A stretch of DNA of 64,000 nt, taken from positions 1,860,001 through 1,924,000 of the forward strand of contig CAKKNE010000002.1 of NCBI GenBank assembly GCA_918797485.1. Reading direction: 5' to 3'. Below, piece by piece: positions 6,578 to 58,272 of this stretch; within the stretch, counting starts at the first letter, position 1; every line of letters starts with the position of its first letter. A program made the translations under genes and the position numbers. Origin of the DNA: Pelagomonas calceolata. Lineage: Eukaryota. The notes below the pieces were generated by a model. It did no database searches. It saw nothing but the letters and a program-made list of their open reading frames with translations, and had not been told where the DNA came from.

Positions 6578-9500
6578 ATGTTCATCGCGAGAGCGGCGCG
6601 GCCCGCGCTGCAGCGGCCGGCGCGCCGCTGGCTCCGGGCGGCGGCCGCCGCGCGAAGCCGGAAAGGGCTCTTACAAAGGGGCGGCAGGAAGGCCGCGCTG
6701 GCGACGAGCGCCGACGTGCCGCCGGACCCCTCGACCTACGCGCGCGTCGCGCTGATCCTCGAGGACGGTTCCGTGTTTGAGGGCAAGTCCTTCGGCGCCG
6801 AGCCGCCGGCCGGGGGCACGTTTGCGGAGGTCGTCTTCCAGACCGGCATGGTCGGCTACGCCGAAGCGTTAACGGACCCGTCGTACCGCGGCCAGTCGCT
6901 CGCGATGACGTACCCCATGGTTGGGAATTATGGCGTGCCCAACAATAACGATAAAGATCCCCTCCAGCCGTTGTTGCCCCGTCGTAGCTTCGAGTCCGAT
7001 AGTATTCACGCGGCCGCGGTTATTTGCCAGGACTATTCCAATCACTTCTCGCACTGGGAGGCGACGCAGTCTCTCGGAAGATGGTTACATGATCAAAACG
7101 TGCCTGGGGTCTGTGGTATTGATACGAGAAGATTGACGAAGGTCCTGCGGGAGCGCGGCTCGATGCTCGGGCGGTTGGTGAAACTCGGTCCCGATGATGC
7201 CTTACCGACTTCCCATGGTACGGACGCCGAAGCGACTGCGTTGCGCGCTAGACATTTAGTCGACGAGGTGTCCATCACGGAGCCTATCACGTACAAGGCG
7301 CCGAACGAACGATTGTCGGTCGTAGCCGTCGACTGCGGCATGAAGGCCAACATGGTGCGCGAATTTAATGCCCGAGGCGTCACGGTGACGGCCGTGCCCT
7401 GGGACTATGATTTCTTGGACTTGCTGGACAAGTCCGACGGGTTATTTGTGTCGAATGGTCCCGGCGACCCGACGCAGTGCCAAGTGACCATCGACAACTT
7501 GAGGACGGCCCTGAACCGAGAAGGCGACGCCTTGCGCCCGATGTTCGGCATCTGCCTGGGGAACCAGTTGACCTCGTTGGCGTGCGGCGCGTCGACCGTG
7601 AAGATGCCGTTCGGGAATCGCGGCCAGAACCAGCCCGTCCTCGACGCCCTGCAGCCGGGCGCCTGCATGGTCACGTCGCAGAACCACGGCTACGCCGTCG
7701 ATCCCACGAACCTCCCGGACGGCTGGCAAGCTTTGTATACGAACGCCAACGACTTGACGAACGAAGGCCTGGTTCACACGTCAAAGCCCTTCTTCACGGC
7801 GCAGTTCCACCCGGAAGCCCACGGCGGCCCGACGGACGCCGCTTATCTCTTTGATGTCTTCGCCGATGCGTGTTCACGGTACAAAGCGGCGAGAGCGACT
7901 GGTTCTACAGTAGATCAAGCATTAATATGGCCCAAGACCATTAACGACTACACGCCGCCGGCCTACCCGAAGAAAGTCCTGTTACTTGGGTCAGGTGGCT
8001 TGTCCATCGGCCAAGCGGGCGAGTTTGATTACTCTGGTGCGCAGGCCATCAAAGCACTTAAAGAGGAAGGCGTCGAGGTCGTGCTGATGAACCCGAACAT
8101 CGCGTCGGTCCAGACGAACGTCGATCCGTCGCAGTCCCAGGAGGAGCGCTTGGCCGACAAGGGCGCCGCGGATCGGGTCTTCTTTTTACCCGTCACGCCG
8201 GACTACGTCGAAGCCGTCCTCGAGAAGGAGAAGCCCGACGCTATTTTAATAAGTATGGGCGGCCAGACTGCCTTAAATTGCGGTATCGAATTGGACGAGT
8301 CCGGCGTGCTCGCCAAGCACAACTGCCGCGTGCTCGGGACGTCGATCGAGACCGTGATAGCCACGGAAGATCGCGAAATCTTCAAGAACAAATGTTTAGA
8401 AATAGGGGAGCCCTGCGCCAATAGTATCGCGACGAACACCGTCGAGGAGGCCTTGGCCGCGGGCGAGAAAGTGGGCTACCCTCTGATGGCGCGCGCGGCC
8501 TTCGCTCTCGGCGGTCTAGGAAGCGGCATCTGCCAGGACGCGGACGAGTTAAGGACGCTCGCGACGAAGGCTTTAGCTGTTTCTCCCCAATTGCTCATCG
8601 AGAAGTCGATGCTCGGCTGGAAGGAGGTCGAATACGAGGTGCGGCGCGCGGCGTCCCTTTGACCTTCGACGCGACGCGTCTCCGTCTTCTGATGAAGGGG
8701 GTGGTCTCTTCTTCGATTTCGAGTACCGAGACACTGATATACAACACAGGTCGTCAGAGATCAACTCGACAACTGCATTACCGTGTGCAACATGGAGAAT
8801 TTTGATCCATTAGGCGTGCATACCGGCGATTCGATAGTCATAGCACCGTCGCAAACTTTGTCGAATGAGGAGTACCACATGCTTAGATCTGCCGCGTTAC
8901 GAGTCGTCCGACACTTGGGTATTGTCGGCGAGTGCAACATCCAGTACGCCTTGCATCCCGAATCGTTAGAATACTGCATTATTGAAGTCAACCCAAGACT
9001 CTCACGCTCTTCAGCCCTAGCTAGCAAAGCGACGGGCTACCCCCTAGCCTTCGTCGCGGCGAAACTGTCCATGGGCGTCACCCTGCCGGAACTCAGGAAC
9101 ACCGTGACCGGCGGCGCGACGATCATGGGCTTTGAACCTGCATTAGACTACTGCGTGACCAAGGTCCCGAGGTGGGACCTGGGGAAGTTCCAGGGGGCCA
9201 ACCGCGTGCTCGGTTCGGCCATGGCGTCCGTCGGCGAGGTCATGGCTATTGGCAGGACCTTCGAGGAGAGCTTCCAGAAAGCCTTGCGCATGGTCGACCC
9301 GTCGAATCCCGGCTTCGAGCCCATTGATGGGATGGAGTTACCCGACGACTCGCTCGAGAAGAAATTGGTTATTCCGACGGATCGACGCGTCTGGGGCATC
9401 GCCGAGGCGTTGTACAAGGGCCAGGGGTGGGATAAACACAGAGTCAGAGACCTGACCAAAATTGACGACTGGTTCCTCAGTCGCTTGGACAAGATCGCCG

Positions 9501-11494
9501 CGACCGGTAAAGATAAGGACAAGTGGGCCGCCTTGAAACCTCTTATTCAATCGCATGATGCGAAGGCTACCTCGTTACTCAGAGAAATAAAACAACTGGG
9601 CTTCACCGATGAACAGATTGCGAACTTCTGTGGTGGTTTATCTGATGACGACGTCCGTGCTTGTCGCAAAGCTTTAGGAGTGATACCTAGAGTGAAGCAG
9701 ATCGACACCTTGGCGGCCGAGTACGCGGCAGAAACAAATTACTTGTATACGACGTACCATGGGGACGATGATGACCAGTTAGCTGGCGACGCGAAGGGAG
9801 GCACGCTCGTATTAGGCTCGGGACCGTACAGGATCGGGAGTTCGGTAGAATTTGACTGGTGCGGGGTAAGTGCCATGCGCGCGTTGCGAGGCTCCGGCGC
9901 CAGAGGTGTCATGGTCAATTGTAACCCGGAAACGGTCTCCACGGACTATGACGAGTGCGACGCGTTGTACTTCGAGGAACTCAGCAAGGAACGAGTCTTA
10001 GACGTGTACGAGCGCGAAGGTATCGACACGGGGTGCGTCATTTCGATGGGGGGCCAGATTCCCCAGAACCTCGCCGGTCCCATCCACGCCGCCGGCGCGC
10101 GCGTCCTAGGCACGCACCCGGACATGATCGACGCGGCCGAGGACCGGTCGAAGTTCTCGGCTCTCATGGACGCGGCTGGAGTTGATCAGCCGAGGTGGGC
10201 CGAGTTATCTTCCCATCAACAAGCGGTGGACTTTGCGTCGGAGGTCGGCTATCCTGTTTTAGTAAGGCCTTCGTTCGTTTTGAGCGGTGCGGCCATGAAG
10301 GTCTGTAGGGACGAGGAAGGCTTGCGGGCGCACCTAGATATCGCCAAAGAAGTCAGCCAGGACTACCCCGTCGTGGTCTCGCAGTTCGTGCGCGGCGCTA
10401 GAGAGCTAGAGATGGACGGCGTCGCGAAGGATGGGGAGGTCGTCTGCTGCCAGGCGCATGAGCATGTGGAAGACGCCGGTGTTCACAGTGGTGATGCGTC
10501 TCTCTTGTTGCCTCCCCAGACTCTATCGGATTATGTCCTTAGACGTGCTAGAGAGGCCGTGCGGGAAATCGTGAAGCAATTGCAGATCTCTGGGCCGTTC
10601 AACATCCAGTTCTTGGTCGGTGGTCGTACTAGTGGTAGTAAAGATGAAGATGAATTAGATGGTTCGTTTGCGTCGATGAATGATGTGAGGGTCATTGAAT
10701 GTAACCTGAGAGCGTCTCGGAGCGTACCGTTCGTGTCCAAGGCGACTGGAGTCGACTTCGCGGACGTCGCGACTCGCGTGTTGGCCGGTTTGCCTTTACC
10801 GGATGAGGAAAAATTACCGCAACTCTTCCCGAGGGAGGGGCAAGCCCCGCAGAACTTTGTGGCGGTGAAAGCTCCCATGTTTTCATTTGCTCGGCTGCGG
10901 GGCGCCGATCCCGCGCTCGGCGTGGAGATGTCCTCGACGGGCGAGGTGGCCTGCTTCGGTCGCGACAAGGAGGAGGCCTTCCTGAAAGCGTTACTGTCGA
11001 CGACGATGAAGGTGCCCACGGCTGGCTCCGGTGACACCGTCCTTGTGTCGTTCGCGGCACCGCTCGCGCATCGCGCCCTAGGCCCGGCCTTCCAGTTGCA
11101 TGATCTAGGCTATGACTTAGTCGGCACGGAGGCCACGGCCTCGTACTTAAGGGGACGGGGCGTGCCGTGCAAGACGGTGGCCTTCCCCACGGACGACTCG
11201 ATGGTCGAGGACGCGACGGCGACCGCTCTGTTACGGGACAAGAAGATTAAGTTGGCGGTGAACTTACATGCGCCGGAATCCAAAAGATTGGAGGACAACT
11301 ACATGATCCGGCGGACGGCGGCGGACTTCGGCATCGCTTTGGTCACGAACCCGCAAGTGTTTGAGTTACTCGCGGCAGCTCTCACGCGGCACAAGAAGGG
11401 CGACATCCTCGCGGCGAACCCCTCGGACCTCTTCTCCTACTACGAGCGCGAGCCGTCGACGGACGCGTGGACGGGCGCGAACGAGTTCCACTAG
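6578..11494 (+). CDS. CPS: Carbamoyl-phosphate synthetase, fused GAT+synthetase, mitochondrial (urea-cycle CPS I/III type); exons 6578-8638 and 8750-11494, ~1601 aa
   Basis: Motifs SNGPGDP, GICLGNQ, QFHPE, GQAGEFDYSG and IEVNPRLSRSSALASKATGYPLA. Arg-rich mitochondrial presequence. Splicing restores EVEYE|VVRD. No DHOase/ATCase domains. Confidence 0.93.
8639..8749 (+). other. Spliceosomal intron (111 nt, GT-AG) in CPS
   Basis: GTGCGG donor, CTGAT branch-like site and ACACAG acceptor. Removal joins the two CPS ORFs in frame. Confidence 0.9.
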
Positions 11495-11634
11495 TCGTGC
11501 GCGCACCCCGCTCTCGAGCGGAACCCACACCTATCCATAAGCTCCCTCACGCGCGCCTAACGACAAAAAATCTATCTAGCACATTACGCGCGGCGGGCGG
11601 GGCCCCTTTTGGGCGGGGAATTGGGGGAGTCGCC

Positions 11635-12567
11635 TCAGCGCGCGCCGAAGGAGATGATCGGCTGGGACCGGTACCGCGAGTCGAGCATGCGGCCCATGGA
11701 GCCCTGGATCTGGTACTTCGGGCCCGGCCGCACCTCGAGCTTGTTGCCGCCCTCGCCGGCGTACGGCCGCTGCGCCGCCGTGCCGAACGTCGCGGAAGGA
11801 TAGCTCTTCTGGGAGGACAGGACGGGCTTCGCCTCGCCCTTCTCGTTGCGGCCCTCCTTGAGGGGGTCGATGTAGTGGCCGGGCCCCGGCTCCTGCGCGC
11901 GCGTCTTCGCGCCGATGTTGTGTCTCCCACCACCGATCGTCGAGATTTTTGAGCTACGGTACTTGGACTCGATCTGCCGCCCACAGCTCCCGTGGGAGTC
12001 GTACTGGCCCGGAGCAGGTCTAGATTTGTTCTCGCGTTCCGCGGCGTTGTTGTAGGTGCGGGGCCCTGTCATGAACTTGACGCCCGGGATGTTTCTACCG
12101 GTAGACAGCATGCGCTGGCCCTTCTCGATGGCCGCCGCATCGTAGGTTTGCGGCGACGGCTCGGCCATGCGGGTCTTCGTGCCGGGGCCGCTCGTCGCCA
12201 ATCTAGGTCCCGTGGAGAACTTCATGCGCGGCGCGCTCCGGATCTTGCTCTGCACTTGGATACCATACGTAATATTGTCCAATTGATACTTCGGGCCGGG
12301 GTTCGTCGAGGCGTTCCCCAATTGTTTCTCGATGGGCCTCCCGCAATCGTTGATCGCTTCGCGTCCAATGCAGGCCGACGGCTCGGACCTCGTTTTCGAC
12401 TCGACGGACTTGACCTCGCCGTTCTTGTTGCGTCCCAGCGTCAGAGGATTGATGTACTGGCCGGGGCCCGGCAGGTTCGGGTCCGCGCCCATCTGCTTGT
12501 CGACGACGGCCTTGCGCGCGGCGAGGCAGAGGCCGAAGGAGGCGAGGGACTGGCCCGTCTCCGTCAT
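11635..12567 (-). CDS. SHIPPO/ODF3-like (sperm-tail PG-rich repeat) axonemal protein
   Basis: Repeated PGPGQY/PGPKY/PAPGQY/PGPGHY motifs about 40 aa apart. Likely ATG at 12567. Confidence 0.8.
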   Translation of the reverse strand: MTETGQSLASFGLCLAARKAVVDKQMGADPNLPGPGQYINPLTLGRNKNGEVKSVESKTRSEPSACIGREAINDCGRPIEKQLGNASTNPGPKYQLDNITYGIQVQSKIRSAPRMKFSTGPRLATSGPGTKTRMAEPSPQTYDAAAIEKGQRMLSTGRNIPGVKFMTGPRTYNNAAERENKSRPAPGQYDSHGSCGRQIESKYRSSKISTIGGGRHNIGAKTRAQEPGPGHYIDPLKEGRNEKGEAKPVLSSQKSYPSATFGTAAQRPYAGEGGNKLEVRPGPKYQIQGSMGRMLDSRYRSQPIISFGAR

Positions 12568-12969
12568 GGTGGCGTTGCTCTTGCTGTTGCGTGTGCGCCT
12601 TACGGGGCCGCGCGGGGCGGTGTGGCGCTGTTTTGGCGCTCTCTGGCTGTTTTGCTTTACGCGCGCGCGGCGGGGCTGCGCTCGCGTTCCTTGGCCGCGC
12701 GGTATGTAGCGCGGGCTGGGCTTAGCTTGTCTTGGGGCAGCGTTGCCTCCTTTTAGCGTCAGAGACTCACAACTTATTCGATGAAGCGAGCGCTGTGGCG
12801 CTGTCCTCAAGGAACGTTGGGCTCTGGGGGAATTTGGGGTACGCCGCAGACGCGATGGCCGAGGCAGTTCCGCGTAGAAGGAGGTATGCTGTCGCGAAGG
12901 ACGCGACCCGCGCCCGCCGCCGACGACTCGGCGACGCGCCCGCGCCGCCCACGAGTCCTAGGAAGTCCC

Positions 12970-14772
12970 TTACTTCTTCCCCCCCTTCGAATCACCACCT
13001 TCAAGGCCCGCGATCAACTCCTCGAGGCGGTCGCAGTCGCCCTTGAGCTCCTTCATGAACGTCGCGAGGTGCGCCGTCTGCGTCCAGAGCGCCTGGAGCT
13101 CCGACCCGAGCGGCTCCGGGAATGTACTAGAGGCTTCACCCGAAGATGACACTTTCTCGGCCAACGACGCCGACGCCGCATCCAAGTCGGCGTCGTGCTC
13201 CTCCTCGGGCGCGAGGTCGGGCATCTGGTCGTCCGCGTTCTGGAAGTTCAGGACCTTGTCAGAGAACATGGTGATGACGAGCGGCGTGGCCACCGACGCG
13301 GGGGGCTGCGTCGCCGGGACCAATGTATACGATCCGGGTTCCAACCAGCAGGCGGCCCAGACCTGGCGCTTCGCGTCGAAAGCTCGCGTCCCGCCGACGA
13401 TCTCCGCAGCCTTGAACTTCGCCGCCCGCCGACCGCCCTTGACGTGCTGGATCGAAAACCCGATCCCGAACAAGTCCTCGCGCCCCAAGGGATCCGGCTT
13501 GTGGAACCTACTATCTTCCTGTGATAAGGTAGCGCAAAATCTAGTAGCTTCAGTAACATCAAACACGTACTGGGGATTCTGGGGCCAATCTCCATCCGTC
13601 GGCGGGCCGCCCGTGCCCGAATCTTGGGAACCGGGCAACCAGGTCCCTCGATAGGACATGAACGACCCGTCCTTCTCGTATTCCCTCGACACAAGTAAAG
13701 TGTCGAAGGCCCCGACGAAGTCGGTCCACTCCATCCAGAACTCGTGCGCGTCCTTCTCCCGTAGGATGGGCATGCCATCCTCACCCAACTCCAGTTTCTC
13801 CTTCATGCCGCACTGCTCCGCGATGGGCTGGTACTCGTTCCAGAGCGCATGCCCTTCGCACCAGCGACCTTTCCACTTCCCGAAGCGCCACGGCGTCGTG
13901 AGCTTGACCATGTGCTTCTCCATGTAGTCGTACTCCACCGTCGCGTCGGCCTCGCAGTGCTTGATCTCCAAGACCGTGTACATGTGCGCGTTCACGAGAC
14001 CGTCCGGCTCGAGGTAATCGGCGGTCAAGGGGTCGCCGGACCGGCGCGGCCCTACGCTCCGACAAACACCAACCAATCCTTCTCTGGCAAGGGCATCGAT
14101 CAGGTCGTTCCACAACGTCTCTGACGACGAGGGCATCGCGATCCGTTCTATCGCTCGGCCCGTGACGTCCTCCATCGCTTCATCCAAGGTACCCCCACCC
14201 AGCGCTTCGTAGCAGCCATGGAGCTTCGCGTAGGCCTTCTCGACGACCATGACCCACGTTTCCGACGGGTCGACGGACCGCGCGAAGTGCGGCGTGCCGT
14301 TCCGCCCGCAGGGAATGCGGTCGTCGACGTGGACGTAGCGCCACCGTCCGCTCTTGAAGAATTTCACCGTATATATGCCCTTGTCCGCGCATTCCGACGA
14401 GACCAGTACTCGTTTCACCTTTTCTGCCGTGTTTAACAGGCCGAGAGCTGATAGGAACCACCTGTCTCGTAAAGCGCCCTGGACCAGGCCGCCATGCACC
14501 TCATTTATTGGAATAGGTTCGATTACGCCCTTGATGGAACCCACCTCGGATATTCGCGGCCAATTGACCACGTCTGGAGGTATCCCGTACTTCGGCGGGT
14601 GCAGCGGATCATAATATAGAGAAGTGCCGTCCGCTTTGAAATGGGGATCCTCGAACTTCTCGTCGTCCTTTAAGCTATTTATGAGCTTCCTTTCGCCTAT
14701 GCGAGCCTTATCATCGGACTCGTAGCTGCAGTAGTGCTGGGCGAAGGCGCCGGCGTCGAGGGAGCGGGCCAT
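12970..14772 (-). CDS. Calpain-like protein (CysPc + domain III), probably catalytically inactive
   Basis: FEDPHF, VDDRIP, EKAYAKLHGCYEAL and FWMEWTDF. The catalytic QGxLGDCW motif reads QGALRDRW. Confidence 0.88.
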   Translation of the reverse strand: MARSLDAGAFAQHYCSYESDDKARIGERKLINSLKDDEKFEDPHFKADGTSLYYDPLHPPKYGIPPDVVNWPRISEVGSIKGVIEPIPINEVHGGLVQGALRDRWFLSALGLLNTAEKVKRVLVSSECADKGIYTVKFFKSGRWRYVHVDDRIPCGRNGTPHFARSVDPSETWVMVVEKAYAKLHGCYEALGGGTLDEAMEDVTGRAIERIAMPSSSETLWNDLIDALAREGLVGVCRSVGPRRSGDPLTADYLEPDGLVNAHMYTVLEIKHCEADATVEYDYMEKHMVKLTTPWRFGKWKGRWCEGHALWNEYQPIAEQCGMKEKLELGEDGMPILREKDAHEFWMEWTDFVGAFDTLLVSREYEKDGSFMSYRGTWLPGSQDSGTGGPPTDGDWPQNPQYVFDVTEATRFCATLSQEDSRFHKPDPLGREDLFGIGFSIQHVKGGRRAAKFKAAEIVGGTRAFDAKRQVWAACWLEPGSYTLVPATQPPASVATPLVITMFSDKVLNFQNADDQMPDLAPEEEHDADLDAASASLAEKVSSSGEASSTFPEPLGSELQALWTQTAHLATFMKELKGDCDRLEELIAGLEGGDSKGGKK

Positions 14773-43914: not shown

Positions 43915-46900
43915 CTAAGGCGACTCGAAGTGCCGGCGGCGACGGCCTGACCCTGAGCCTGACCCTGAGCCTGATCCCGTGGCGCTGCGCGGCCGCCGCG
44001 GCCGGCCGTCGTCCCCCGCCTCACGGCGCTGGCGCCGTCGACGTCTGCGTCGTTCAGCGGGAGTCTCGTCGGCGAAGCCTTCGCCCTGGATCGGCGATTG
44101 GGCGTTTCCAAAGTACGCACCAAACAATCCGGCCGTGGCATCAGTCTCGAGGGGCGCGACGTCTCGTCGTCGGCGCCCGCTACGGCCTGTGAGCCTTCTC
44201 TTTTGCACCATGGTAGCATAGCCCAGTTGCACTGCTCTACAATCTTGAAACACTCCGTCCGGGAAGTGAGGTATGTCTGGTTTATCAAGTTCGGCGTGGG
44301 GATAGTCGGGTGAAATTTCGACGCCACAGCAATAGCAGAAGTCCGTGCGTTCGCGTGTACAAGGCATCACGTCCGTTGATTTGTGAGTCATATGATTGCA
44401 CGACTCGGGGTCATCCTTTTCTATCACTTTAAAACCTGTGTGGAATCAAAATTCGCGACGCGCTCGACTCCACGCCATCGCGACAGCTGCTCGACGGCGT
44501 GGAGGTGCCAGTTCCTCACCGCTCGACGGAGCCAGCACAGCCGTGAACCCGACGTACTGGTTGATTTCCACACAGCTTGAAACAACCGGGACAGCGCTGC
44601 GCGCCATGCTGTTCTCTCCACTCCTCCACCTCGACGTCGGCCCGCTCGCTACACTTGATATTCGGGTGCCACCTGCGTAGAATTCAACCGGTGAGTCAGG
44701 TTGCGTCGATGACGCAATGAAAATTGATTTCCGCCCAGGATCCACGGGCACTTGCAGCGGACGCACCATCTATAGGCGCAGTACGGGCACTGCACCATGG
44801 GGTCGCCGTCTCTAGGTAAGTTCACGAAGCTGCCGCACTTCAAACAATGTATACCTTCACCGAGCACGGATCTATCATAAAAATCGACGAACTTGCGGTA
44901 CTCCTTCCGCCCGAGCACGCGCCGCGCATGCAAATCAGATATATTTGTGGTGCAGCCGGCGTGATGCATCGGACAGCGAAGGGGAAACCTGTGTGGAAAT
45001 CAAATTTGGGCGCCCCGCTATCGACGCGACACATCCCGATGACATCCCGACGACTCCGTCTACTCGATGGCGTGGAACTGTTACGCCATAGACGCCACGT
45101 CGCCCATGTAATCGCGTCTGCTCGATGGCGTCGAGGTTCACGAAGTTCTCCCGCAATAACTCTCCGGATAAGCTAACTCAATGGGTGATTTCCACACAGG
45201 TAGAGACATCGAGATATCACCTAACGCAGCGTGGCAGTAGCTACGCATACAGCCGACGCAGACGTCGTGGTTGCACGACTGGAGATGTATAACAGCATTG
45301 TCCTCGGCGTAACAAATGCAACAGCTCCCCTTTTTCGTGAAGAGGCGGTTCTGGACCTCGTGGAAGAGCCGCCCGTAGTGCCTTGCGTGGTCCAGTTTGG
45401 GTGCAACGGCCGCGGCCTCGACCGCCCTTGGGGCCCACTGTTTTCTGCCGCGCGCGACGGCGATGCGCTGCCGCTTCCTCCTATCTTCCGCCGAGCCCCG
45501 GAAGACAATACCCCCGGAAACGCCCATGACCAGCGCGAGGAAGCCCCCAACCGCCAGCACGACGATGACCACCGTGGGCATCCTGTACTGTTTTTCTTTC
45601 ACAGGCTGGGACCCGTACAAGGGGTCGTCCCAGCAGAGCTCCCAGTACGGCCTACTTTCACGCGCGGGTCCCGCCGTCAAGCGCACATTTACAGTTGTGT
45701 TCTGGAGGTTCGTCCCGACGTTCACGTAGAGCCTCGTTAATACCCTGCCGCAGAAGATGCGTAAAGGTCGTAAAGTGCGTGTACAACACTCCGCGCCCGA
45801 GATTTTATCTCGACAGTCCTCGCACAGGAACACGAGCTGGCCCGCGGGCGTGTCGCCGCCGTAGACGGCGAAACTAATGCCCTGGCGCAGTTGGAGCGGC
45901 GCGTCGAAGGACACGTCCACATAAGTCACGGCTTCGGTCGCGGAGGCCGCCCAGCCGCAGTCGGGGTACGCCAATGTCGCGTTGCCCTGCCCCAGCGCCC
46001 AGGCCTTTGTCGTAGAAGACGTCGTGTACGTGAGCTCGTCGCTCGCGGAAGGGAGCGCGTACCGATGGCGTTCGAGCACGGCGGGCGCGTTGACCGTGCC
46101 GCAGTGGCGCTGGATATCCGTTTCCAGTGAAGCGCGGGGCGGTATCGCGGCGTGTCCGTCCACAAAGTCCACCTGCCGCTGCTGGACCACTTCCAACCGG
46201 TCGTCCATTCGCACCGAGAGAGACGTCTCCGGGGCGAGCTCGGCCCGCCACGCGGCCGTCAAACCTGTGTGGAAATCAACCAGTGAGTTAGGTCGTGAAC
46301 CTCTACACCAAGGAGCAGACGCAGTTACGGGGACAACGTCGCGTCGATGGCGTGGGGCGTGCGAAATTTGATTTCCACACATTGTCAAACGAGGCAGCGC
46401 CTTGCCCGCCGCAAGCCCGGGCCCCGCGATGTGCGCGTCCTCGGGCCCGTCTTCAGAAGCGGCGGCGAAGCCCTCGTCGGTCCCCGGCGTCTGGAGCAGG
46501 ACCTTGTCCGTTTCCGTGTTCGGCGCAGAGGCCACGAAGTAGTGCGCCAGGAAGCCCGTGCCCCAATCCAGGTCGTCGGAACCCTCTAACGTGGAATAGG
46601 CCACGCGGATCGCGCATCGGTCGGCATACGCCAATGACCCACAGGCCACGGATAAAGGTGGCGGCGGCGCGTCGCAGCCGCCTGCCCTACAGGAGAAGAG
46701 CACGGCGCCCGTGTCCGCTTGCGTCACGTTGAAGGACCCCGCATCACCTAAATCCAAGCGCGGGAACGCGACGACGACGCGCGTCGTCGCCGTGACCGGC
46801 GGCGCCAAGATCCACTCGCAGTCTTGCGAGGGCCGCGCGGCCGCGTCCGGCGCGGAGCCGTCGCTAAACAGGAACGACGACGCTCTTAACACAGAACGCT

Positions 46901-49397
46901 GCTGCGACGATGATGAGGCCCACCACTGTTGATCATCACCGGTCAGGGGCGCGAGGGGCACGAGGTGCGCGCCGCAGCCCTGCTGCGGCCGGTCCGAGAA
47001 GTAGGCCACGTCGAAGCCGCGGCCCGCTATTTCCGTAAAGGTCTGCAACCTCAAAATCATCTCGGGCCCGCTCGAGGCCAGCCACTTCGTGGAAGTACTA
47101 CCGCAGAACGTGTCCAGGATGGCGTCGTTGGACACGCTGCCGTCGTAGATTGTTAAAGATCCCTGGGCGCAGTCCGGTATGTCAATCGCGTTCGCCACGA
47201 GCAAGACGTTGGAACCGCCCCCTACGTCGACGTGCCAGTTGAGATCCAAACCCGACGCCAGCGTGTCCCCGACGTAGGGCGCGCGCACGGATGGTGCGGA
47301 GGCGGCGGCGAGCCGCATCTCGCCGTCGCCGACGCCTCTGCCTTCTGTGAAGGAGGCGTAGTAGCGTGCCTCGAACCCGAGGCCGTCGGGCTCCGCCTCC
47401 GTTTCCAACGTGACGTACAATGCATGTGATGAAGCGTGTAAGATGGGCGGGATCTCCTCGCAGCCCGCGCAGTCCCAGAGTAAGGTTGAGGTTGCATTTG
47501 CACCTCCATAGATCCGGAGCCGCCCGCCGCCCAGGTCGACGCGGTAGAACGCCAGGCTGATAGCTGAGACAATGGGTTCCGGTCGTACGAGCCACTCGCA
47601 CTGCAGCGAGGCGGCCATGGCGTCGGCCGGCGCCGAGCCGTCGCCGAAGACGAAGGAGGCCGCCGTGAGCACGCCGGGCTCGCGCACGTGGCCGCAGCGG
47701 TACTTTGGCGCGTCACTGTAGTACGCGAAGTCGACGGCGCCGCCCTCGGAAGTCGACTGGGAGAGTAATCGTAAAGTAATGCCATCAGAAGCAGGTGGCG
47801 CCGTGAAGGCGTCCGCGACCAACCAGGCCTGCAGGTCGGACGAGCAGTCCCACGTCTTGAGGAGTGGGGGCGACCCCGCCTCCTGATAAGCGAGGGCCCA
47901 CGTCGCCTCGTCGTCGCTCACCGCCCCGCCGTACGCCTCGACGACGTCGCCGCAATCGAGGGATAACGCGTTCCAGGCGATCGCCAAAAAGTCTATAGAA
48001 CCGCCAAACACTTTTGGATGTACGACCCACCTATAATCGAGACTCCCCTTCCAGTTATGCGGCGCTCGGATCGACGTCGCCGCGCCACCGACGAGCTCTA
48101 CTTTTTTAGAACCAGCACCGGCGTCCCAGTCCGTAGTTTCCGTCCAGTAGATGGCCTGCCAGCCCGTCCACTCGCTGGCCTCCTCGGTCACGGGGTCCGT
48201 GTAGTACGCGGAGCCGCTCCCGGACACGTATTCGACGTACAACGCGTCGCCCGACGCTTCTAAGGGAGGCGGCGCCGTGAACTGGCAGCCGGCGCAGGAC
48301 CAGAGGAGAGGAGCGTTTTCACCGTTCCCGTCGTAGACTTTCACACTACCTTCGTATTTTACGGACACGCGTTCGGCCACGAAGATTAAGGACGGCGTCC
48401 AGTCGCTGCGCGAGGGTGGCGGCCACGTTAGTGATTGTATTGAATGATCCAACAATGAAGGCGCGACCAGCCACTCGCACGCGTCGGGGCCGAGCATATT
48501 TCCTGTGGCGGAGGAACCATCTGTTAACAAGGCTGATGGTGCCGTAGCCAACGAAACCTCATCCAACGCCCCGTGCTCTCCACAACTACAATAACTCCCG
48601 ACGTGGCACGCGTCGGCGCCGGCCGCGACGTACCGCGCCCGAAATATGAAATCGGGTTCGTCCTCGGCACTGCCCGAAGCGCTACCCGGTGCTGAAAGTT
48701 GCACCATGACGTTGCCCCTTCGACCATAGACCCACTGCTCTGGAAAATCGGCGTGGGTCCACCGTGCCAGCAGGCCCTCGCCGTCGCTTACCGTGACGGT
48801 GTCGCCCTCGCGTAACGTGGCGGCCTCCACATAGACCGCCACGTCGCACTCCGTGCAATCTTTAGGATTGATCTTCCAATCATACAACAAGGGTCGGGGC
48901 GCTTTGCCGCTGGCCGTCTGCGGGGCTATCATGAGGCCTTGCGCCATCTTGAGCTCGACTTCGTAGGTCTCGCCGTCCGCCCGCTCGCCCATGTCGTCCG
49001 TGTGGGCCAGATACCTGATCTTGAAGCCGGAAGCGCCGCCTCTCGGGGCGCTAAAGGTGATAAGAGCAGCGGTCTTCGTTGTTAAGTAAAACGGCGGCGG
49101 CAGCACTTCCCCACAAGAAACACACCGCCACAGCTGCGCCTCGCTCACGCGCTCCTCGCCCTCGTACATGAAAATCTCGCAGCCGTCACATTGCAGTTCT
49201 TCGAAGACGAGCACGAGCGTCTGCATCGAACTGGAACTGCTCGGCTTGATGGCGTAGGTGCACTTGTCGCCCGGGTCGAGTCCTCCCTCGATATACGTCG
49301 CGAGGTTGAGGCGGCCCGTCAGTGCTGTGACCGTGGCGTCGTGGCAAATGGCCCAGGCGCCGGTGGCGAGCCAGAGGAGGGCCCAGAGGCGACGCAT
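43915..49397 (-). CDS. Signal peptide, ~7-8 CUB-like domains, TM and RBR (RING1-IBR-RING2) E3 ubiquitin ligase, ~1638 aa; exons 49397-46391, 46264-45208, 44988-44746, 44672-44584, 44435-43915
   Basis: Exons sum to 4917 nt (in frame). Repeated CxWxI...F..xDL...YDG...GF..xY CUB pattern. TM is VVIVVLAVGGFLALVMGVSGGIVF. RING1 is CCICY..CNHDVCVGC..RCPMHHAGC, IBR is CLKC..CPYCAYRWCVRCKCPWH...C and RING2 is RCPGC..IEK..SCNHM..FCYCCG. Confidence 0.87.
44436..44583 (-). mobile_element. Introner, 148-nt intron
   Basis: TIRs at 44436 and ending 44575. TSD TTTAAAAC/CTTGAAAC. Removal restores RCPG|CFKVIEK. Confidence 0.9.
44673..44745 (-). mobile_element. Degenerate, internally deleted Introner, 73-nt intron
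   Basis: Decayed TIRs CTGCGTAGAATTCAA / TTGATTTCCGCCCAG. Removal restores CKCP|WHPNIKC. Confidence 0.8.
44989..45207 (-). mobile_element. Introner, 219-nt intron
   Basis: TIRs at 44989 and ending 45199. Degenerate TSD GGGGAAAC/GTAGAGAC. Removal restores DISM|FPLRCP. Confidence 0.9.
46265..46390 (-). mobile_element. Introner, 126-nt in-frame stop-free intron
   Basis: TIRs at 46265 and ending 46382. TSD CGTCAAAC/TGTCAAAC. The ORF track reads through it. Confidence 0.88.
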
Positions 49398-49601
49398 GGT
49401 GGCTAGGTGTGAGCCGTCTGCGTCATCGGTCGCGCGGCATGGTTATTCCGTCCGGGGGCAGCCCGGCGGCGCGCTCAGGTCTAGGCACAGCGTCTGAGAG
49501 CGCCGCGCCGCGCTGCCGCTGAACCCGACCTTTTCTTGCATTTATTATGAGCCATCGTACGTTTGCTTCCACTTGTCCTAGGAGTCCTCGAACGAACCAG
49601 C

Positions 49602-50612: not shown

Positions 50613-50832
50613 GGAATTGTTGTTTCTAGTGTGTTACAGGACGTAAGCCAAGCGTGGGTTAGGCCCGCTGCCCTCAACGCCACAATATTGCACCATAAGT
50701 GTGCAATTGTTGGCGAGCAGTCATTTTGGGACGTCCTGCCTCGAAAAATAGTGACGGCGCAATCGCTGCGCATCGCTGCGCGTAGTTCCTTAACTCTTGG
50801 AAGTGGCTGATTACGCAAAAATCGCCGTAGCG

Positions 50833-52641
50833 ATGGTGTCCGGCCGCGCAAAGCGCCACGCAGCAATAGCAGGCATCGCCATCGCGACCGGCGTATTCAT
50901 GGAGCTCCTAAAAAACGCGCCGACGCCGCGCCGCGGCAACCCTATTCGCGAGCTCCTCTATGACGTGAAGCTGGAACGGCTGGAGAACGAGTCGCACTTG
51001 GCAACTACATTCCTAAGATCGCAGCCGGATGCGGAACTCGCGGCCTTCCTCGCCGAGAGCGCCGCCGCGACGAACTCGACGTTGGGCAGGATGAGGGCGC
51101 TCGCAAAACGAAGATTATTTTGGGGCCTGCAGCGTTGGTTGGGATTGAGCCGCACGGACGCCTCGGGCTTGCTAAGCATGGCGACGCTCTACGTCGGCTC
51201 GCACCAGCAGTTCAAAGCGCTGGTCAACGGCACGGCGGCGTCGCTCTTAGACGTCGGAAGCGGCACGGGCACGGAAACACAAAAGTTGGCAAATGTGCTG
51301 GAATCCGACGACGTCGCCTGCCTCGAGAGCTCCAAGGCCATGCGCGTCACATTAAGGGGGATGGGCTTTCGCGCCGAGGCGACGCCGGACGAACTGGGCG
51401 ACGAGGCCTTCGCCGCCGCTTCACTACTAAACGTGCTGGACCGCTGCGACGAGCCCGGAGCGTTGCTGAACTTGGTGGCGGATCGAGTGGCCGACGGCGG
51501 TCTGGTTCTGATCGCTTCTGTTTTACCTTATAGTCCGATGGTGCATGAAGGACGCTTCTTATCCCCGTACGGCAAGGCCCAATCACGTCGAGCGAAGCGC
51601 CCGTTGCAGGTGAAGCCCGCGCGGACCTTCGAGGCGGGCGCGATCAACTTCGTGAACAGCGTGCAAGCGGCGCGGCCGGGACTCCAACTAGAAAGCTGGA
51701 CGCGGCTGCCCTACGTCAGTTCGGGCGACACGGGCCGGACGCATTATGTGTTGGACCAGGCGGTCTTCGCGTTCCGCAATGCCATGAAAGACGCGCCGCC
51801 CGCCGCGTGTGCCAAGCGCGGTGATGATCAAATTTACAAGTGGCTCGGGACGCACTTTGAAGAAGGAGGCGATATGTTAGATGCGGGCACGGGCTTCGGG
51901 TCGCTCTGCTGGCTGCTGCGGCGGTCCTACGACTCGCTGACGGCCGTCACCGCGACCAATGAAGGCATGTACGGCGCCAAACCATTACGGGAGATGACGC
52001 GGAACCGGAACGTGAGCGTCGTCATCGGGAACTGGCGGGACGATGGTTTCTTGAGCGATCAGACATATGATGTGGTCGTCGCGGACTACCTGTTCGGCGC
52101 GACGGAGCGGTACTGGGCCTACGGCGCGGACGAGCTGCTTGGTAGGTTGTTAGATAGGGTGCGGCCGGGCGGCACGTTGCTCATCGTGGGCCTCGAGCCC
52201 TACGAGCTCGTGCTCGATAGGAACGAGAAGGACGACAGGCTGGTTCTCGAGGTCGAGGCCATCGGCGACGCCGCGGCGACGGCGGCGTTCGAGCCGAACT
52301 ACCGCGAGCTGCCCGAGCGCTGGATTCGTGAACGGATCGCGCGGACGACCCAGTTCAATGTTGTGGCCACGGAGCGGTTCCCGATGCGCCTCACGGCGCG
52401 GTCGCTGCAGCGGCAGCTCGTCTTCGCGCGCGACTGCCTCGTGAAGATCGAGGACGACGGCCTCCGGGCCGCCTTCGAGGCGCGGGTCCGGGCCCTCGAC
52501 AAGGAGCTTAGCGTGTGGGCGCGCAAGGGCAAGTCCCACCGCCGCGCGCGCAACTACGCGATCGTCGTGCGCCGCGCCGCGCAAGAAGGGGAGGCTGCTC
52601 CGAAAGAGCGCAAGCGGCGCTTCTTCGGGAAGAAGAACTAA
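50833..52641 (+). CDS. METTL9/DREV-like His-methyltransferase fused to a second class I SAM-methyltransferase domain
   Basis: SRTDASGLLSMATLYVGSHQQF, LLDVGSGTG, SLLNVLDRCDEP and WTRLPY fit METTL9. The second domain has MLDAGTG, GNW, YDVVVADYL and GLEPY. N-terminal hydrophobic anchor. Confidence 0.8.
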   Translation: MVSGRAKRHAAIAGIAIATGVFMELLKNAPTPRRGNPIRELLYDVKLERLENESHLATTFLRSQPDAELAAFLAESAAATNSTLGRMRALAKRRLFWGLQRWLGLSRTDASGLLSMATLYVGSHQQFKALVNGTAASLLDVGSGTGTETQKLANVLESDDVACLESSKAMRVTLRGMGFRAEATPDELGDEAFAAASLLNVLDRCDEPGALLNLVADRVADGGLVLIASVLPYSPMVHEGRFLSPYGKAQSRRAKRPLQVKPARTFEAGAINFVNSVQAARPGLQLESWTRLPYVSSGDTGRTHYVLDQAVFAFRNAMKDAPPAACAKRGDDQIYKWLGTHFEEGGDMLDAGTGFGSLCWLLRRSYDSLTAVTATNEGMYGAKPLREMTRNRNVSVVIGNWRDDGFLSDQTYDVVVADYLFGATERYWAYGADELLGRLLDRVRPGGTLLIVGLEPYELVLDRNEKDDRLVLEVEAIGDAAATAAFEPNYRELPERWIRERIARTTQFNVVATERFPMRLTARSLQRQLVFARDCLVKIEDDGLRAAFEARVRALDKELSVWARKGKSHRRARNYAIVVRRAAQEGEAAPKERKRRFFGKKN

Positions 52642-54038: not shown

Positions 54039-55517
54039 TCAGTGGTTGTGCCCTGCGTGCGGGTCCTCGACCTCCTTGTCCCCGGAGCAGTGCGAGTGGT
54101 CGAGGAGCACGAGGCCGATCGCGACGGCTCCGATGATGAAGAGGACGGTGTTGAGGAGCTTGAGGCGCCACGTCGGGTTCTTGTGCACGAACGTCGCCGC
54201 GCACTCCGTCGCGGCGACGTAGACGTAGACGCCGCCGCTGAAGGCCAGCAGCATGCCGCGGTCGCCGTTGCCCGGCTCCAACCACAAAAACCACCAGGCC
54301 CCAATAACGACGGAGGCGCCACTCACCACATTCACGGCGAGCGCTTGTACCGTCGTGAGGCCGCCGCGCGTCACGAGCATGAAGAAGTCGCTCACTTCTT
54401 GGGCGAGCTCGTGGGCCACCGTCGACGACGCGACGGTCCAGCCCTTGGACTGCTGGCAGTCCAGAAACGCGTTGGCGATGAAGATGCCGTCCACAAAATT
54501 GTGCAGAAAGTCCGAAAGAAAAATCGCGAAGCAGAACGACGCGTCGACCTTCCTCGCGGGCCGTTCCGTGTTCACGGCGTCCGCCTTGATGATATCTGAA
54601 CTCTCGGGGCCGCCGCCGTCCTCGATCTGGCAGCACGGCTCCTCGCAGTCGTCCGCCACGTACAAATGCGACGGGTCCGCCGCCGCCGACACCATACCCA
54701 ACAAATAGCCCGCGAGCACACAAGTCCCGAAGCGCCAGTTCCCCTGCACCTCCGTCTGGTAGGAAACCGCCAACAAATGGCTCGCCTCGATCAGCAGAAG
54801 GTAGAAGGCCGTCGCCAATAAACAACCCACGGCGAAGGCCGCCACGCCCATCGTGAAGGGCTCGTTCTCCTCGAGCTTGCCCACGCCAAAGGCAAACCTC
54901 AATATCGCCCCGACGACCGTGCAGGCCAGGACCAAAAACGATGCGAGCGTCGCGTTGCGCCACGCGCGCGCGTCCTTTTTGTTTTGGTTCTTGTCGGACA
55001 ATGGTGCGGCGCACTCCGCGAGGCGCCGCCGGTGGTCGTGGCCCGCGTGGGGATCGACGCCTTCACCTAAAGTGCAGACGGGCTCCACATCAACACCGGC
55101 GGCGTCCTTGAGGTAGTGCGTCGAGACCTCGATCTCATCGAGCCCGTGCTCGAAGAAGAACGCGAAGAAGCCCGTCGCCTCTGCTAATCGCCGGCCGTGG
55201 TCGTGGCCCGCGTGCGGGTCCGTCGCCGCGGGCGTCGTTATTGTGGTCGCGCCGGCGACGAACAAGGCGCAGGCCGTGACCTCGAGATCATGCGGATTTG
55301 ACGCATTATTGTTGCACTTCGAGAGGCCGCTGGCTAATGTTTTTGCCTCGTCGAGAGCGTAATAATCCAGTGCGTCGAGGCCGACGCCGACGGCGAGCAC
55401 CTTGACGTCTATGGCTGTCGTGAAGATGTAGTTGGTCTCGGCATTGAGCTCGAAGACCGCTACACTCTCATACGCCGCCGCGCAGCCTACCAGGAGGGCT
55501 GCCCGCAGCGCGGCCAT
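54039..55517 (-). CDS. ZIP (SLC39, LIV-1-like) zinc transporter with His-rich N-terminal ectodomain
   Basis: Signal peptide, TM4 DFLHNFVDG and TM5 HELAQEVSDF. DPHAGHDH occurs twice and the C-terminus is DPHAGHNH. Confidence 0.92.
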   Translation of the reverse strand: MAALRAALLVGCAAAYESVAVFELNAETNYIFTTAIDVKVLAVGVGLDALDYYALDEAKTLASGLSKCNNNASNPHDLEVTACALFVAGATTITTPAATDPHAGHDHGRRLAEATGFFAFFFEHGLDEIEVSTHYLKDAAGVDVEPVCTLGEGVDPHAGHDHRRRLAECAAPLSDKNQNKKDARAWRNATLASFLVLACTVVGAILRFAFGVGKLEENEPFTMGVAAFAVGCLLATAFYLLLIEASHLLAVSYQTEVQGNWRFGTCVLAGYLLGMVSAAADPSHLYVADDCEEPCCQIEDGGGPESSDIIKADAVNTERPARKVDASFCFAIFLSDFLHNFVDGIFIANAFLDCQQSKGWTVASSTVAHELAQEVSDFFMLVTRGGLTTVQALAVNVVSGASVVIGAWWFLWLEPGNGDRGMLLAFSGGVYVYVAATECAATFVHKNPTWRLKLLNTVLFIIGAVAIGLVLLDHSHCSGDKEVEDPHAGHNH

Positions 55518-56005
55518 CGCGGTCGCCGTCGCTGGCAGGTGTCGACAGGCTGGGTTGCGTGCCGCACAGGTGGGGCAGCGGCTCAGGGGATGCCTGCAGG
55601 TACGCGCTCTGTGACGTGCAGCGCTTCGCGCAAGCCGGGCAGCTTTTTGCCCAAGCTCTTTGTTGGGGGTGTGGGAGCAAATACCCGAACCTTATCCCCC
55701 GCGCCGCCCCGGAGGAATCCGTGGCAGCCCGACGCCCTGCGGGCGGCGGGCGGGCAGCCCTCAGCCCACCCCCTACTTGACGCCACAACAGAAACTCGCT
55801 GTGTTAATTAGCCACTTGCACGGGAAGTACGCGAATAAGGTAACGGCCGGCGCCGTGGAGGCATTATAGCATGCGAGCGTCGCCGCGTCGTGGCTGCCCC
55901 GCGGAGCGCTTTCGCTCCTGTTGCAACAGCGACGCGCAACCGAGGCTGCCTCCCACCTGCCAGAACGTCCGCGACGCGCGCCAACGCCGCCGTCCCGCAG
56001 GCATT

Positions 56006-56686
56006 ATGTCGCTCCGCAGCCTCCTTTTCCTCGCGATCGCGGCGCCGGCCGCGGCGGAGTACGAATGGTACGGGGTGGTGAAGCTGGCGCACTCGTCGGA
56101 GTACACAATGACGATAAAGACGCTGACCGAGACCATGAACCTCTACATCGCGGAGATCAACGAAGGCGCGGCGCTCGACGTGGCAGCGCTGGACACCATC
56201 GCCGACGGCGCCGAGTCCTACATGAAGACGTACGAGGCAAGAGACGGCACCATCGCTGACGGGGACGAAATCGATGTCGGGGAACAGACGGTCGTGACGC
56301 TCACGATGGGCACCGGCGCCACAACGACGTACGAGCTCCACGTTGGGGCGCACTCCCACCGCCGCCGCCTCTCGGGCGACGACGTCTACTTCGCCATCTT
56401 CGCCGGGCACGGCATCGACGAATGGGAGGACTCGTCGGCTCACTTCCTCAAGTGCGGCGCGGGGGCAGCGTGCGGGGACGTCGCGGCCGGCGCCGACATC
56501 GAGCTGGAGTGCGTCGGTGACGTCGACCACGCGGGCCACGACCACGGCCGCCGCCTCTCGGGCGACCACGAGGAGGCCGCCCCAACGTGCGCCAAGCCGT
56601 CGTCGAGCGACGGCGCGTCGACGCCCGCGGCGGCGGTGGCGCTGGCCCTCGCCGGCCTCGCCGGCGGCCTCGCCCTCTTCCTTTAG
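56006..56686 (+). CDS. Secreted, probably GPI-anchored His-rich protein homologous to the ZIP ectodomain (226 aa)
   Basis: Signal peptide, then YEWYGVV, HSHRRRL, FAGHGIDEWE..HFLK and HAGHDHGRRL. C-terminal SSSDGAS is followed by a hydrophobic tail ending the ORF. Confidence 0.82.
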   Translation: MSLRSLLFLAIAAPAAAEYEWYGVVKLAHSSEYTMTIKTLTETMNLYIAEINEGAALDVAALDTIADGAESYMKTYEARDGTIADGDEIDVGEQTVVTLTMGTGATTTYELHVGAHSHRRRLSGDDVYFAIFAGHGIDEWEDSSAHFLKCGAGAACGDVAAGADIELECVGDVDHAGHDHGRRLSGDHEEAAPTCAKPSSSDGASTPAAAVALALAGLAGGLALFL

Positions 56687-56853
56687 GCCTACCCACCGTT
56701 CGGCTAGGTCCCCCGAGCACAAGAGTAAGACTCGACGCTGTGGGTCTCGGGGCGGCGTTTTCTGTTCAAGTTACGGTTCTTGGGTCTGCTAATTAGCTAT
56801 TAGAGAGGTTAGAGAATGAAGAGAAGAAATGCGTTTCGGAGCGCGAGTACGGG

Positions 56854-58272
56854 TTAGCATTCGGGTTCGAGTTCCTGTTCCAATTCGGGCGCCCAGCTCT
56901 GCGCCGGAGGCGGCCGCTCGGCGGCGAGGACGGCCTCGGCGGGTACCTCTTCCTCCTCGGCCGCGAAGGCCCCCGCGCCTTCGTACCCATACGGGACTTC
57001 CACTCGCACATCCGCTTTGGGTATGGGTACCAGGGGCGGCGGCGCATCGGCCTTTGAGTCCGCGGCGTGTTTGTGCCGGGCCTTGTACGCGGGGCAGCCC
57101 GCACACGCGAAGCAGCACAGCGCGACGCAGCACAAGATAAAGACGAGGGCGCCGCACGCGAGGCCGGCGACGAGGCTGACGTTTAGTTTGCAGCACGCGG
57201 ACGAAGACGAGGCACAGCAGGTGTCTTTTTGGCAGCCTATCTCTTCCATTCCCAAGACTGTCCAGTCTTTCCACCGCCCAGTCTCGAGCCAAAAAACACC
57301 GCAGTGACCGTCGTGGAGATCTTCGGCGGCGCAAGTGCCGCACCCCTGGATGTTCCTGAGTGTGTCGAGCGCCGCGACGGTGTGCGGGCAGTACCCGGGG
57401 CCCATGACGTCGGCGCTCCATTGGTAGAACCCTGGGATGCCCAGCTGAGTATTCTTCTCCGTGCAGCCGTCCTTGTCGACGAAGGAGACGCAGTCCCAAC
57501 CGGTCTGGTCCCCCTCCAGGGCTGGGTCGAGCTGGAGCGAGTACCGCGCGATGAAATCTTCCGGGCAGCAGCCGCCCGCCTGTACCTCCGCCAGGGTCGT
57601 GCCGCAGCCGTACTCGTTGTCGAATTTACTTCCGTAGACGCTGACGCAGCACTCGCCCTCGGCCGCCAAGTCCACGATGCCATCGCCGTCGTTATCCTTT
57701 GTGGCGTCGACGGCGCACTCGTTGTCGCCCGAGAGGCGGCGGCCGTGGTCGTGGCCCGAGTGGTCGACGTCACCGACGCACTCCAGCTCGATGTCGGCGC
57801 CGGGGAAGACGTCCCCGCACGCCGACGCGCCGCACTTGAGGAAGTGGACCGACGAGTCCTCCCACTCGTCGATGCCGTGCCCGGCGAAGATGGCGACGTA
57901 GACGTCGTCGCCCGAGAGGCGGCGGCGGTGGGCGTGCGCCCCGATGTGGAGCTCGTACGTCGACGTGGCGCCGGTGCCCATCGTGAGCTCCACGCATTTC
58001 TGGGTCGTGTCGATCTCGATTTCGGTGCCGTGCGCGGCCGTCGCTCCGTAACAGTACGTCTGCATGTAGGACTCGGCGCCGTCGACGATGGTGTCCAGCG
58101 CTGCCGCGTCGGGCGTCGCGCCGATTTCGGCGATGTAGAACCTCATGGTCTCGGTCAGCGTCCTTATCGTGAGGTCGTACTCCGACGAGTGCGCCAGCTT
58201 CACCACCCCGTACCACTCGTAGGCCGCGGCCGGCGCCGCGACCGCGAGGAGAAGGAGGCTGCGGAGTGCCAT
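56854..58272 (-). CDS. Type I membrane His-rich protein (472 aa): same ectodomain plus Cys-rich domain, TM and acidic tail
   Basis: The N-terminal ~180 aa are nearly identical to the 56006 gene. Cys-rich middle and TM LVAGLACGALVFILCCVALCCF. ATG at 58272. Confidence 0.82.
   Translation of the reverse strand: MALRSLLLLAVAAPAAAYEWYGVVKLAHSSEYDLTIRTLTETMRFYIAEIGATPDAAALDTIVDGAESYMQTYCYGATAAHGTEIEIDTTQKCVELTMGTGATSTYELHIGAHAHRRRLSGDDVYVAIFAGHGIDEWEDSSVHFLKCGASACGDVFPGADIELECVGDVDHSGHDHGRRLSGDNECAVDATKDNDGDGIVDLAAEGECCVSVYGSKFDNEYGCGTTLAEVQAGGCCPEDFIARYSLQLDPALEGDQTGWDCVSFVDKDGCTEKNTQLGIPGFYQWSADVMGPGYCPHTVAALDTLRNIQGCGTCAAEDLHDGHCGVFWLETGRWKDWTVLGMEEIGCQKDTCCASSSSACCKLNVSLVAGLACGALVFILCCVALCCFACAGCPAYKARHKHAADSKADAPPPLVPIPKADVRVEVPYGYEGAGAFAAEEEEVPAEAVLAAERPPPAQSWAPELEQELEPEC

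Follow-up and report, generated by a model that had tools for sequence, protein, structure and literature searches.

The locus considered here raises the question of why an alga should keep the gene for a ZIP-family transporter head to head with the gene for a free-standing relative of the transporter's own ectodomain, and of what the free protein might do. It lies in a 64,000-nucleotide stretch of DNA from the GC-rich eukaryote Pelagomonas calceolata (assembly GCA_918797485.1, contig CAKKNE010000002.1, forward-strand positions 1,860,001 to 1,924,000), which we call the window and in which all positions below are counted. The feature at this locus is real, and the reading that we favour, to which we give a probability of roughly 55%, is that the free protein is an abundant glycosylphosphatidylinositol (GPI)-anchored collector that would bind zinc or cobalt at the cell surface and concentrate the metal for the scarcer ZIP. 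An earlier note, made from the letters of this DNA alone, had described such a divergent pair, and both open reading frames (ORFs) are there, at 55517→54039 and 56006→56686, with divergent start codons 488 bp apart.

The ZIP gene (55517→54039, reverse strand) is an intronless ORF of 492 amino acids that runs from a signal-peptide-like start through an ectodomain and His tags to a membrane domain and a C-terminal HAGHNH. The protein matches PF02535 at 61.3 bits (E 1.2e-16, curated cut-off 35.1), and HNFVDG at residue 339 and HELAQE at residue 369 follow the familiar pattern of the metal-site motifs in ZIP core helices. Its ectodomain (residues 16-150; 55068..55472, reverse strand) is, by profile match and by an AlphaFold model with a predicted local distance difference test (pLDDT) score of 80.0, a degenerate member of an uncatalogued domain; it has an internal HAGHDHGRRL loop (55185-55214, reverse strand) and is followed, between Cys148 and Cys169, by a HAGHDH-RRRL tag (55020..55049, reverse strand) that is recognised from the sequence and from the signature count given below. 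The free-domain gene (56006..56686, forward strand) encodes 226 amino acids arranged as a signal-peptide-like start, the same uncatalogued domain (residues 19-171; 56060..56518), a His tag, a linker and a GPI-like tail. This domain, delimited by its model (pLDDT 89.9) and by conservation, contains an HxH-RRRL loop (residues 116-122) and four candidate ligands, His135, Glu139, Glu141 and His146; the conserved HAGHDHGRRL tag after it lies between Cys169 and Cys195 (56528..56557, forward strand) and includes a possible RXL processing site. The GPI-like signal (56606..56683, forward strand) consists of small residues (SDG), a spacer and a terminal 19-residue hydrophobic stretch (hydropathy 2.3) with nothing beyond it. 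This succession of signal peptide, small-residue omega site, spacer and hydrophobic tail, read by inspection and hydropathy, agrees with the GPI-type surface protein proposed earlier and suggests a protein that would be exported and anchored.

The likeness between the free protein and the ZIP ectodomain extends beyond the tags. BLASTP aligns the two proteins at 42% identity over 108 amino acids (E 4e-12), a match that spans the C-terminal half only and leans on the His and RRL tags; aligned end to end without the trailing tags, the domains are 28-31% identical. A profile of 127 outside domains, from which all window-family rows had been removed and which had originally been gathered with a profile containing window sequences, scores the three domain-bearing proteins of the window at 18.0-24.3 bits, against a maximum of 8.3 for shuffled sequences (300 each), and positions 1-132 of a 133-position profile are covered in all three. 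Chance likeness through the His tags is rejected, as these tag-independent scores lie well above the shuffles. The two AlphaFold models have the same order of strands and helices, and they share overlapping alignments and are thus not independent. Recent duplication is also rejected, since protein identity is only 28-31% and DNA matches are short and confined to the tags. By its sequence, then, the free protein is an old paralogue of the ZIP ectodomain and not a fresh copy. The alignment of the ZIP N-terminus with its neighbour, as first noticed, stands by profile, but the pairing of YESVAVFEL with YEWYGVVKL is not significant pairwise; likewise the "stand-alone copy" keeps its common origin but is an old relative, and a third copy had been overlooked. 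This third gene (58272→56854, reverse strand) encodes 472 amino acids with a signal peptide, the domain (57772-58221), a Cys-rich module, one membrane helix (57118-57174) and an acidic tail, and its protein is 77% identical to the free protein over 192 amino acids.

In a tree of 56 rows, thinned by identity from 253 domains, the free family is sister to the ectodomain of this ZIP (support 100/95), followed by the ZIP P0156 (98/83); both branches are long, and each placed alone lands nearest P0156. A quick tree of 96 rows recovers the sister link with a Shimodaira-Hasegawa-like approximate likelihood ratio test (SH-aLRT) value of 93, nested among the ectodomains of the ZIPs P0156 (62) and P0338 (94). 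Evidence independent of the tree comes from a Cys-HxGHxH-RRL-Cys signature after the domain, which is found in 86 of the 97 members of the free family, in all five ZIPs of this type and in none of 151 others. Because of the nesting among ZIP ectodomains and the common signature, duplication of the free form out of the ZIP is the simpler reading, and an origin by duplication from an ancestral ZIP of this lineage is favoured on these sequence grounds. The earlier claim that the ectodomain was duplicated out of the ZIP therefore holds for the common origin, but the direction is no more than favoured, as the approximately unbiased (AU) test does not reject a free family placed outside the ZIP ectodomains (p 0.546). 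The same test rejects a single origin of all free surface forms (p 0.0125) and of all ZIP ectodomains (p 0.005).

Transcription was read from four stranded polyA runs, all from one sample; reads span the whole region, most of them at 99% identity or more. RNA 5' ends cluster at 55645-55649 for the ZIP and at 55796-55811 for the free gene, and the gap of about 155 bp that separates the two starts (55648..55801) is a likely shared promoter. Downstream of it the free gene has a 161-nt GT..AG intron in its 5' untranslated region (55840..56000, forward strand), with 293-850 spliced reads per run. The shared region of about 490 bp reported earlier is accurate as a distance between start codons, but its untranscribed part shrinks to about 155 bp and the intron takes up another piece of it. 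Mean depth is 9,100-14,000 for the free gene, 47-64 for the ZIP (range along the gene 25-135) and 25-33 for the third gene (12-46), so that the ratio of free gene to ZIP is 168-220 in all four runs and that of free gene to third gene 311-509. A 1.5-kb stretch holding the free gene accounts for 0.33% and 0.51% of the total reads in two runs, and contig depths in two other samples, a weak measure, agree in direction on its excess. Co-expression, on which the earlier proposal leaned, is thus seen in that both genes are transcribed in the four runs, but at levels 168-220-fold apart.

The domain is found far beyond this locus. It comprises about 135 amino acids, predicted as a beta-sandwich with one long helix (AlphaFold model of the 153-residue free domain), and the profile search that had been suggested, once run, finds it widespread, in ZnuA and COG0523 proteins, in other algal ZIPs and in a lipoprotein of a urease operon. 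Neither the free protein nor 51 diverse domain rows match a Pfam or NCBIfam family, and a search of PDB sequences gives no match below E 0.5; a match to a known non-metal family was looked for in these three collections and none was found. Foldseek with the domain model gives no match at E ≤ 0.001, the best VIA matches (Z 4.6, root-mean-square deviation (rmsd) 3.3, 89 aligned; Z 4.3, rmsd 3.6, 83 aligned) are generic carbohydrate-binding or GOLD-like sandwiches, and Atlas matches for the free domain, all below 0.9, serve as leads only. The copper proteins CorA and MopE, considered as fold relatives, reach only Z 3.2-3.6 in VIA and were not used.

An exhaustive profile search places the domain in 877 clusters from bacteria, archaea and algae at E ≤ 0.001. 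Rough sorting of the best 150 of these gives 32 ZIP, 17 ZnuA, 11 with a signal peptide and a hydrophobic tail and 7 with a signal peptide and a membrane helix; the remaining 83 mostly resemble fragments. Anchored free forms thus recur in other eukaryotes and in an archaeon, P0267 being a minimal example. Among 110 relatives retrieved by a profile search of longer proteins, 61 carry ZnuA (PF01297) and 13 ZIP. A genome scan yielded 59 prokaryotic loci with the domain, in 50 of which the ZnuA C-lobe profile matches the host ORF; 30 prokaryotic hosts scanned against Pfam comprise 25 ZnuA, 2 COG0523 and 3 with neither, a near-identical relative of the latter having choice-of-anchor M domains. In ZnuA the domain is internal to the protein with His tracts alongside, and in the two COG0523 proteins (loci L058 and L059) it sits between the GTPase and C-terminal domains, with a WD40 neighbour at L059. 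At least three His are found within 25 residues downstream of the domain in 100 of 102 prokaryotic copies, several ZnuA-like hosts adjoin genes for FUR-family regulators or COG0523 proteins, and six plasmid records contain the domain.

The window domain matches a full-length profile with an EW...H-x3-E-x-E...H core, and E20, H135, E141 and H146 (full-length numbering) are invariant columns across the 51 diverse rows. In 92 rows of the free family, H135, E139, E141 and H146 are kept in 90, 91, 92 and 92 respectively and no segments vary less than the His tags, while more than 60 positions match the window in fewer than 60% of rows; RRL comes after the His tag in 86-88 of the 92 and the terminal hydrophobic tail is found in 66. 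In the favoured model the other surface positions probably vary because they are exposed and evolve under relaxed or diversifying selection. From this residue conservation, and from the place of the domain in ZnuA, COG0523 and ZIP proteins, we infer that the free protein would bind metal, through the His-x3-Glu-x-Glu...His site together with the flexible His tags. The nearest relative and the neighbour of the free protein is a ZIP, and in the favoured model the surface collector would raise the metal supply and hand metal on to this scarce transporter. The zinc scavenger envisaged earlier thus gains a link to metal uptake through its fusion partners, but not its zinc specificity, as nickel- and cobalt-type contexts exist. 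Eight metagenome loci related to the window were found; the head-to-head order of ZIP and free gene, as in the window, is conserved in all three with enough upstream DNA (L060, L061 and L067), in one case at 57% protein identity, and L067 keeps the whole gene order except for the third gene, which is absent.

Several known systems invite comparison. In diatoms, an abundant tethered ligand, ZCRP-B, has been proposed to feed scarcer ZIPs, the hand-off itself not being shown (Kellogg et al. 2022, PMC9010474). Like ZCRP-B, an extracellular, membrane-tethered putative Zn/Co ligand that outnumbers ZIPs, the free gene is in RNA excess and its product is predicted to be tethered; by contrast, ZCRP-B is a solute-binding protein of NikA/CntA type with an N-terminal membrane helix, whereas the free protein is modelled as a small beta-sandwich with a C-terminal GPI-like tail and is a paralogue of the ectodomain of the ZIP beside which it is encoded (PMC9010474). 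A NikA/CntA-type fold finds no Pfam or NCBIfam match in the free protein, which has the 153-residue beta-sandwich model instead. Phytotransferrin/ISIP2a, as described in the same paper, likewise concentrates a scarce metal as an abundant surface protein anchored in the membrane, but it is iron-specific, endocytosed and unrelated in sequence (PMC9010474). The fungal pairs Pra1-Zrt1 and Aspf2-ZrfC, for which co-induction by low zinc and docking are reported, likewise combine a ZIP gene with an adjacent gene for a His-rich exported protein, export being predicted for the algal one; unlike them, the free protein has no Pfam match, is predicted to be anchored rather than released and is homologous to the transporter ectodomain (PMC5751234). 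The earlier description of the algal pair as analogous but non-homologous to the fungal ones is consistent with this lack of a Pfam match. In cyanobacteria, COG0523 proteins of branch 1a have an unnamed beta-rich insert of about 150 amino acids and lie in zinc-linked clusters that include a WD40 gene (Barnett et al. 2012, PMC3323870); the domain occupies the same place in L058 and L059, with WD40 beside L059, and is set alongside the Prochlorococcus insert by position and context, but that insert is cytoplasmic and bacterial whereas the algal form is predicted to be exported, either free or fused to ZIP (PMC3323870). The accessible parts of PMC13368412 and PMC10957091 contain nothing on this domain.

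Mammalian ZIP4 has an N-terminal ectodomain that is thought to aid zinc uptake and is helical. This ectodomain is not known to be free-standing. Unlike it, the models of both window domains are mostly beta, and fold searches gave no clear relative.

A number of observations weigh against the collector model. The roughly 200-fold difference in level argues against simple co-regulation of the pair, and the head-to-head pairing may be passive, as all neighbours are conserved in L067. The window form looks like a derived variant of an accessory domain that has lost the YADPxM motif, which is found in 98 of 102 prokaryotic copies, 15 of 97 members of the free family, none of the five ZIPs of this type and none of the three window proteins. 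Free-gene depth falls about 200-fold past 56572 (56572-56745), just ahead of the anchor-coding tail; no large pile of loose read ends occurs there. Library bias or an early 3' end is possible, and RNA structure (z -1.36) does not explain the fall. Full-length RNA of the free gene exists, because a contig from run X10 covers 55999-56742 intact and reads, if few, reach the tail. In a pelagophyte study (PMC13284251) a related ZIP rose with iron sufficiency and the authors suggest intracellular roles; that ZIP is a paralogue with canonical domain copies, and about half of the protein FASTA of the study gave no match to the window motifs. The membrane part of the window ZIP visibly resembles a P. 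calceolata ZIP in the data of that study. Finally, dN/dS (nonsynonymous over synonymous substitution rate) near 1 in the free domain is unusual for a nutrient-binding protein, and the metal may not be zinc, as other copies of the domain lie in a urease operon and in a metal-efflux cluster.

These last contexts lead to the first alternative, which we regard as unlikely, that the free protein binds nickel, cobalt or manganese at the surface, or stores or buffers metal without serving the neighbouring ZIP. A 183-residue Tat/lipoprotein-like stand-alone copy of the domain stands right after ureF in a urease operon on a plasmid of the haloarchaeon Natrinema (L068, 3872-4423), which hints at nickel; another copy is an insertion within a membrane protein bearing an HSILPDHW motif on an Alicyclobacillus plasmid, among genes for cation efflux (CDF) and a metal-sensing repressor (CsoR) (L069, 3779-4690); NCBIfam matches to AztC and MntC show that ZnuA-family proteins carry Mn too; and free gene and ZIP differ about 200-fold in expression. 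However, the prokaryotic hosts are mostly ZnuA-like, several of them beside FUR-family or COG0523 genes, and the free protein has a ZIP for both nearest relative and neighbour.

Somewhat more doubtful still is that the free protein now serves chiefly as a variable coat (shield, adhesin or virus decoy), with a structural or vestigial metal site and the domain as an N-terminal cap. Its variation speaks for this: the free domain has a dN/dS of 0.52-0.95 when compared with the window and of 0.6-1.95 across 28 pairs, whereas the ZIP ectodomain has 0.13-0.35, the membrane part of the ZIP 0.08-0.09 and the kinase 0.02-0.07, although low dS (G+C content at third codon positions, GC3, 0.91) inflates these ratios and paralogues may be among the pairs. 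In L065 the kinase shows 99% identity and the gene at the free position only 71% (dN 0.012 and 0.17), and relatives of the free family are mosaic, with P0037 and P0057 as reciprocal mosaics, although chimeric assembly is possible for some. The same domain bears exchanged C-terminal modules in L064, L065, L066 and the third gene (FG-GAP repeats, Pro-rich linkers, Cys-rich modules with a membrane helix or a GPI-like tail), the gene at the free position of L065 (197-1174) having the Cys-rich one, and the very high RNA level would also fit a coat. Against this, conservation is highest at the candidate ligands and in the His tags, and the domain is found in none of 32 candidate viral contigs. A bolder composite, which we consider improbable, is a zincophore derived from the ZIP ectodomain and displayed in bulk, which would be shed at RRL into the seawater zinc-ligand pool, and recaptured by the ZIP ectodomain, and whose surface would come to differ from strain to strain through an arms race against viruses or metal thieves, with the metal site staying fixed. 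Least probable is release alone, in which cleavage at RRL would shed the His-tagged domain to scavenge seawater metal and return to the ZIP: the frequency of RRL after the tag, the RXL cleavage site of diatom secreted proteins, whose role is called unproven (PMC5647440), and the Pra1-Zrt1 precedent (PMC5751234) speak for it, but Cys169 and Cys195 lie on either side of the site and could keep the pieces joined, the ZIP has the same tag and would lose its own ectodomain, and release would probably be costly for a tiny cell in open water.

Other carriers of the domain came to light. In P0137, P0143, P0197, P0203 and P0211, eukaryotic surface proteins, it is accompanied by a second unnamed Cys/His repeat (HHDxC-x-HD...GFH-x2-E-x2-C) that has no Pfam match and is a candidate second metal-binding module, and in the eukaryotic P0219 it is joined to a fragment that resembles siderophore/F420 ABC binding proteins (NCBIfam E 5e-16). 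The ZnuA proteins of Poseidoniales-titled and related archaeal records (L004-L040) reach lengths of 800-1,080 amino acids and contain the domain once or twice, together with His tracts and EF-hands, and their domains show high identity to marine eukaryotic copies. Elsewhere in the window lie a two-domain methyltransferase (DREV-like plus a second class I domain; 50794-52641), which is kept in L067, and a 1,400-residue protein with multiple CUB domains and a weak RING-like match at its C-terminus (45138-49442). The 90% sequence cluster to which the window ZIP is assigned contains mostly unrelated PAPS (3'-phosphoadenosine 5'-phosphosulfate)-transporter sequences, a clustering error in the collection.

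A literature search, which left subscription journals mostly uncovered, turned up no account of either the algal ectodomain or the free protein. New here are the grouping of the free form with the ectodomain of this ZIP, with their common Cys-His-tag-RRL-Cys signature; RNA starts about 155 bp apart with the free gene nevertheless read 170-220 times more; and relatives of the free family that appear hypervariable and mosaic around a fixed His135, Glu139, Glu141 and His146. How open-ocean picoeukaryotes acquire zinc and cobalt at very low concentrations, and where the organic zinc ligands of seawater come from, are open questions. With a small protein that folds well in its model, four candidate ligands, an adjacent cognate ZIP and high expression, the locus makes the model of a tethered collector directly testable. 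If true, this model would for the first time assign a function to a domain that occurs in 877 bacterial, archaeal and algal clusters, and the free gene might serve as a field marker of metal stress.

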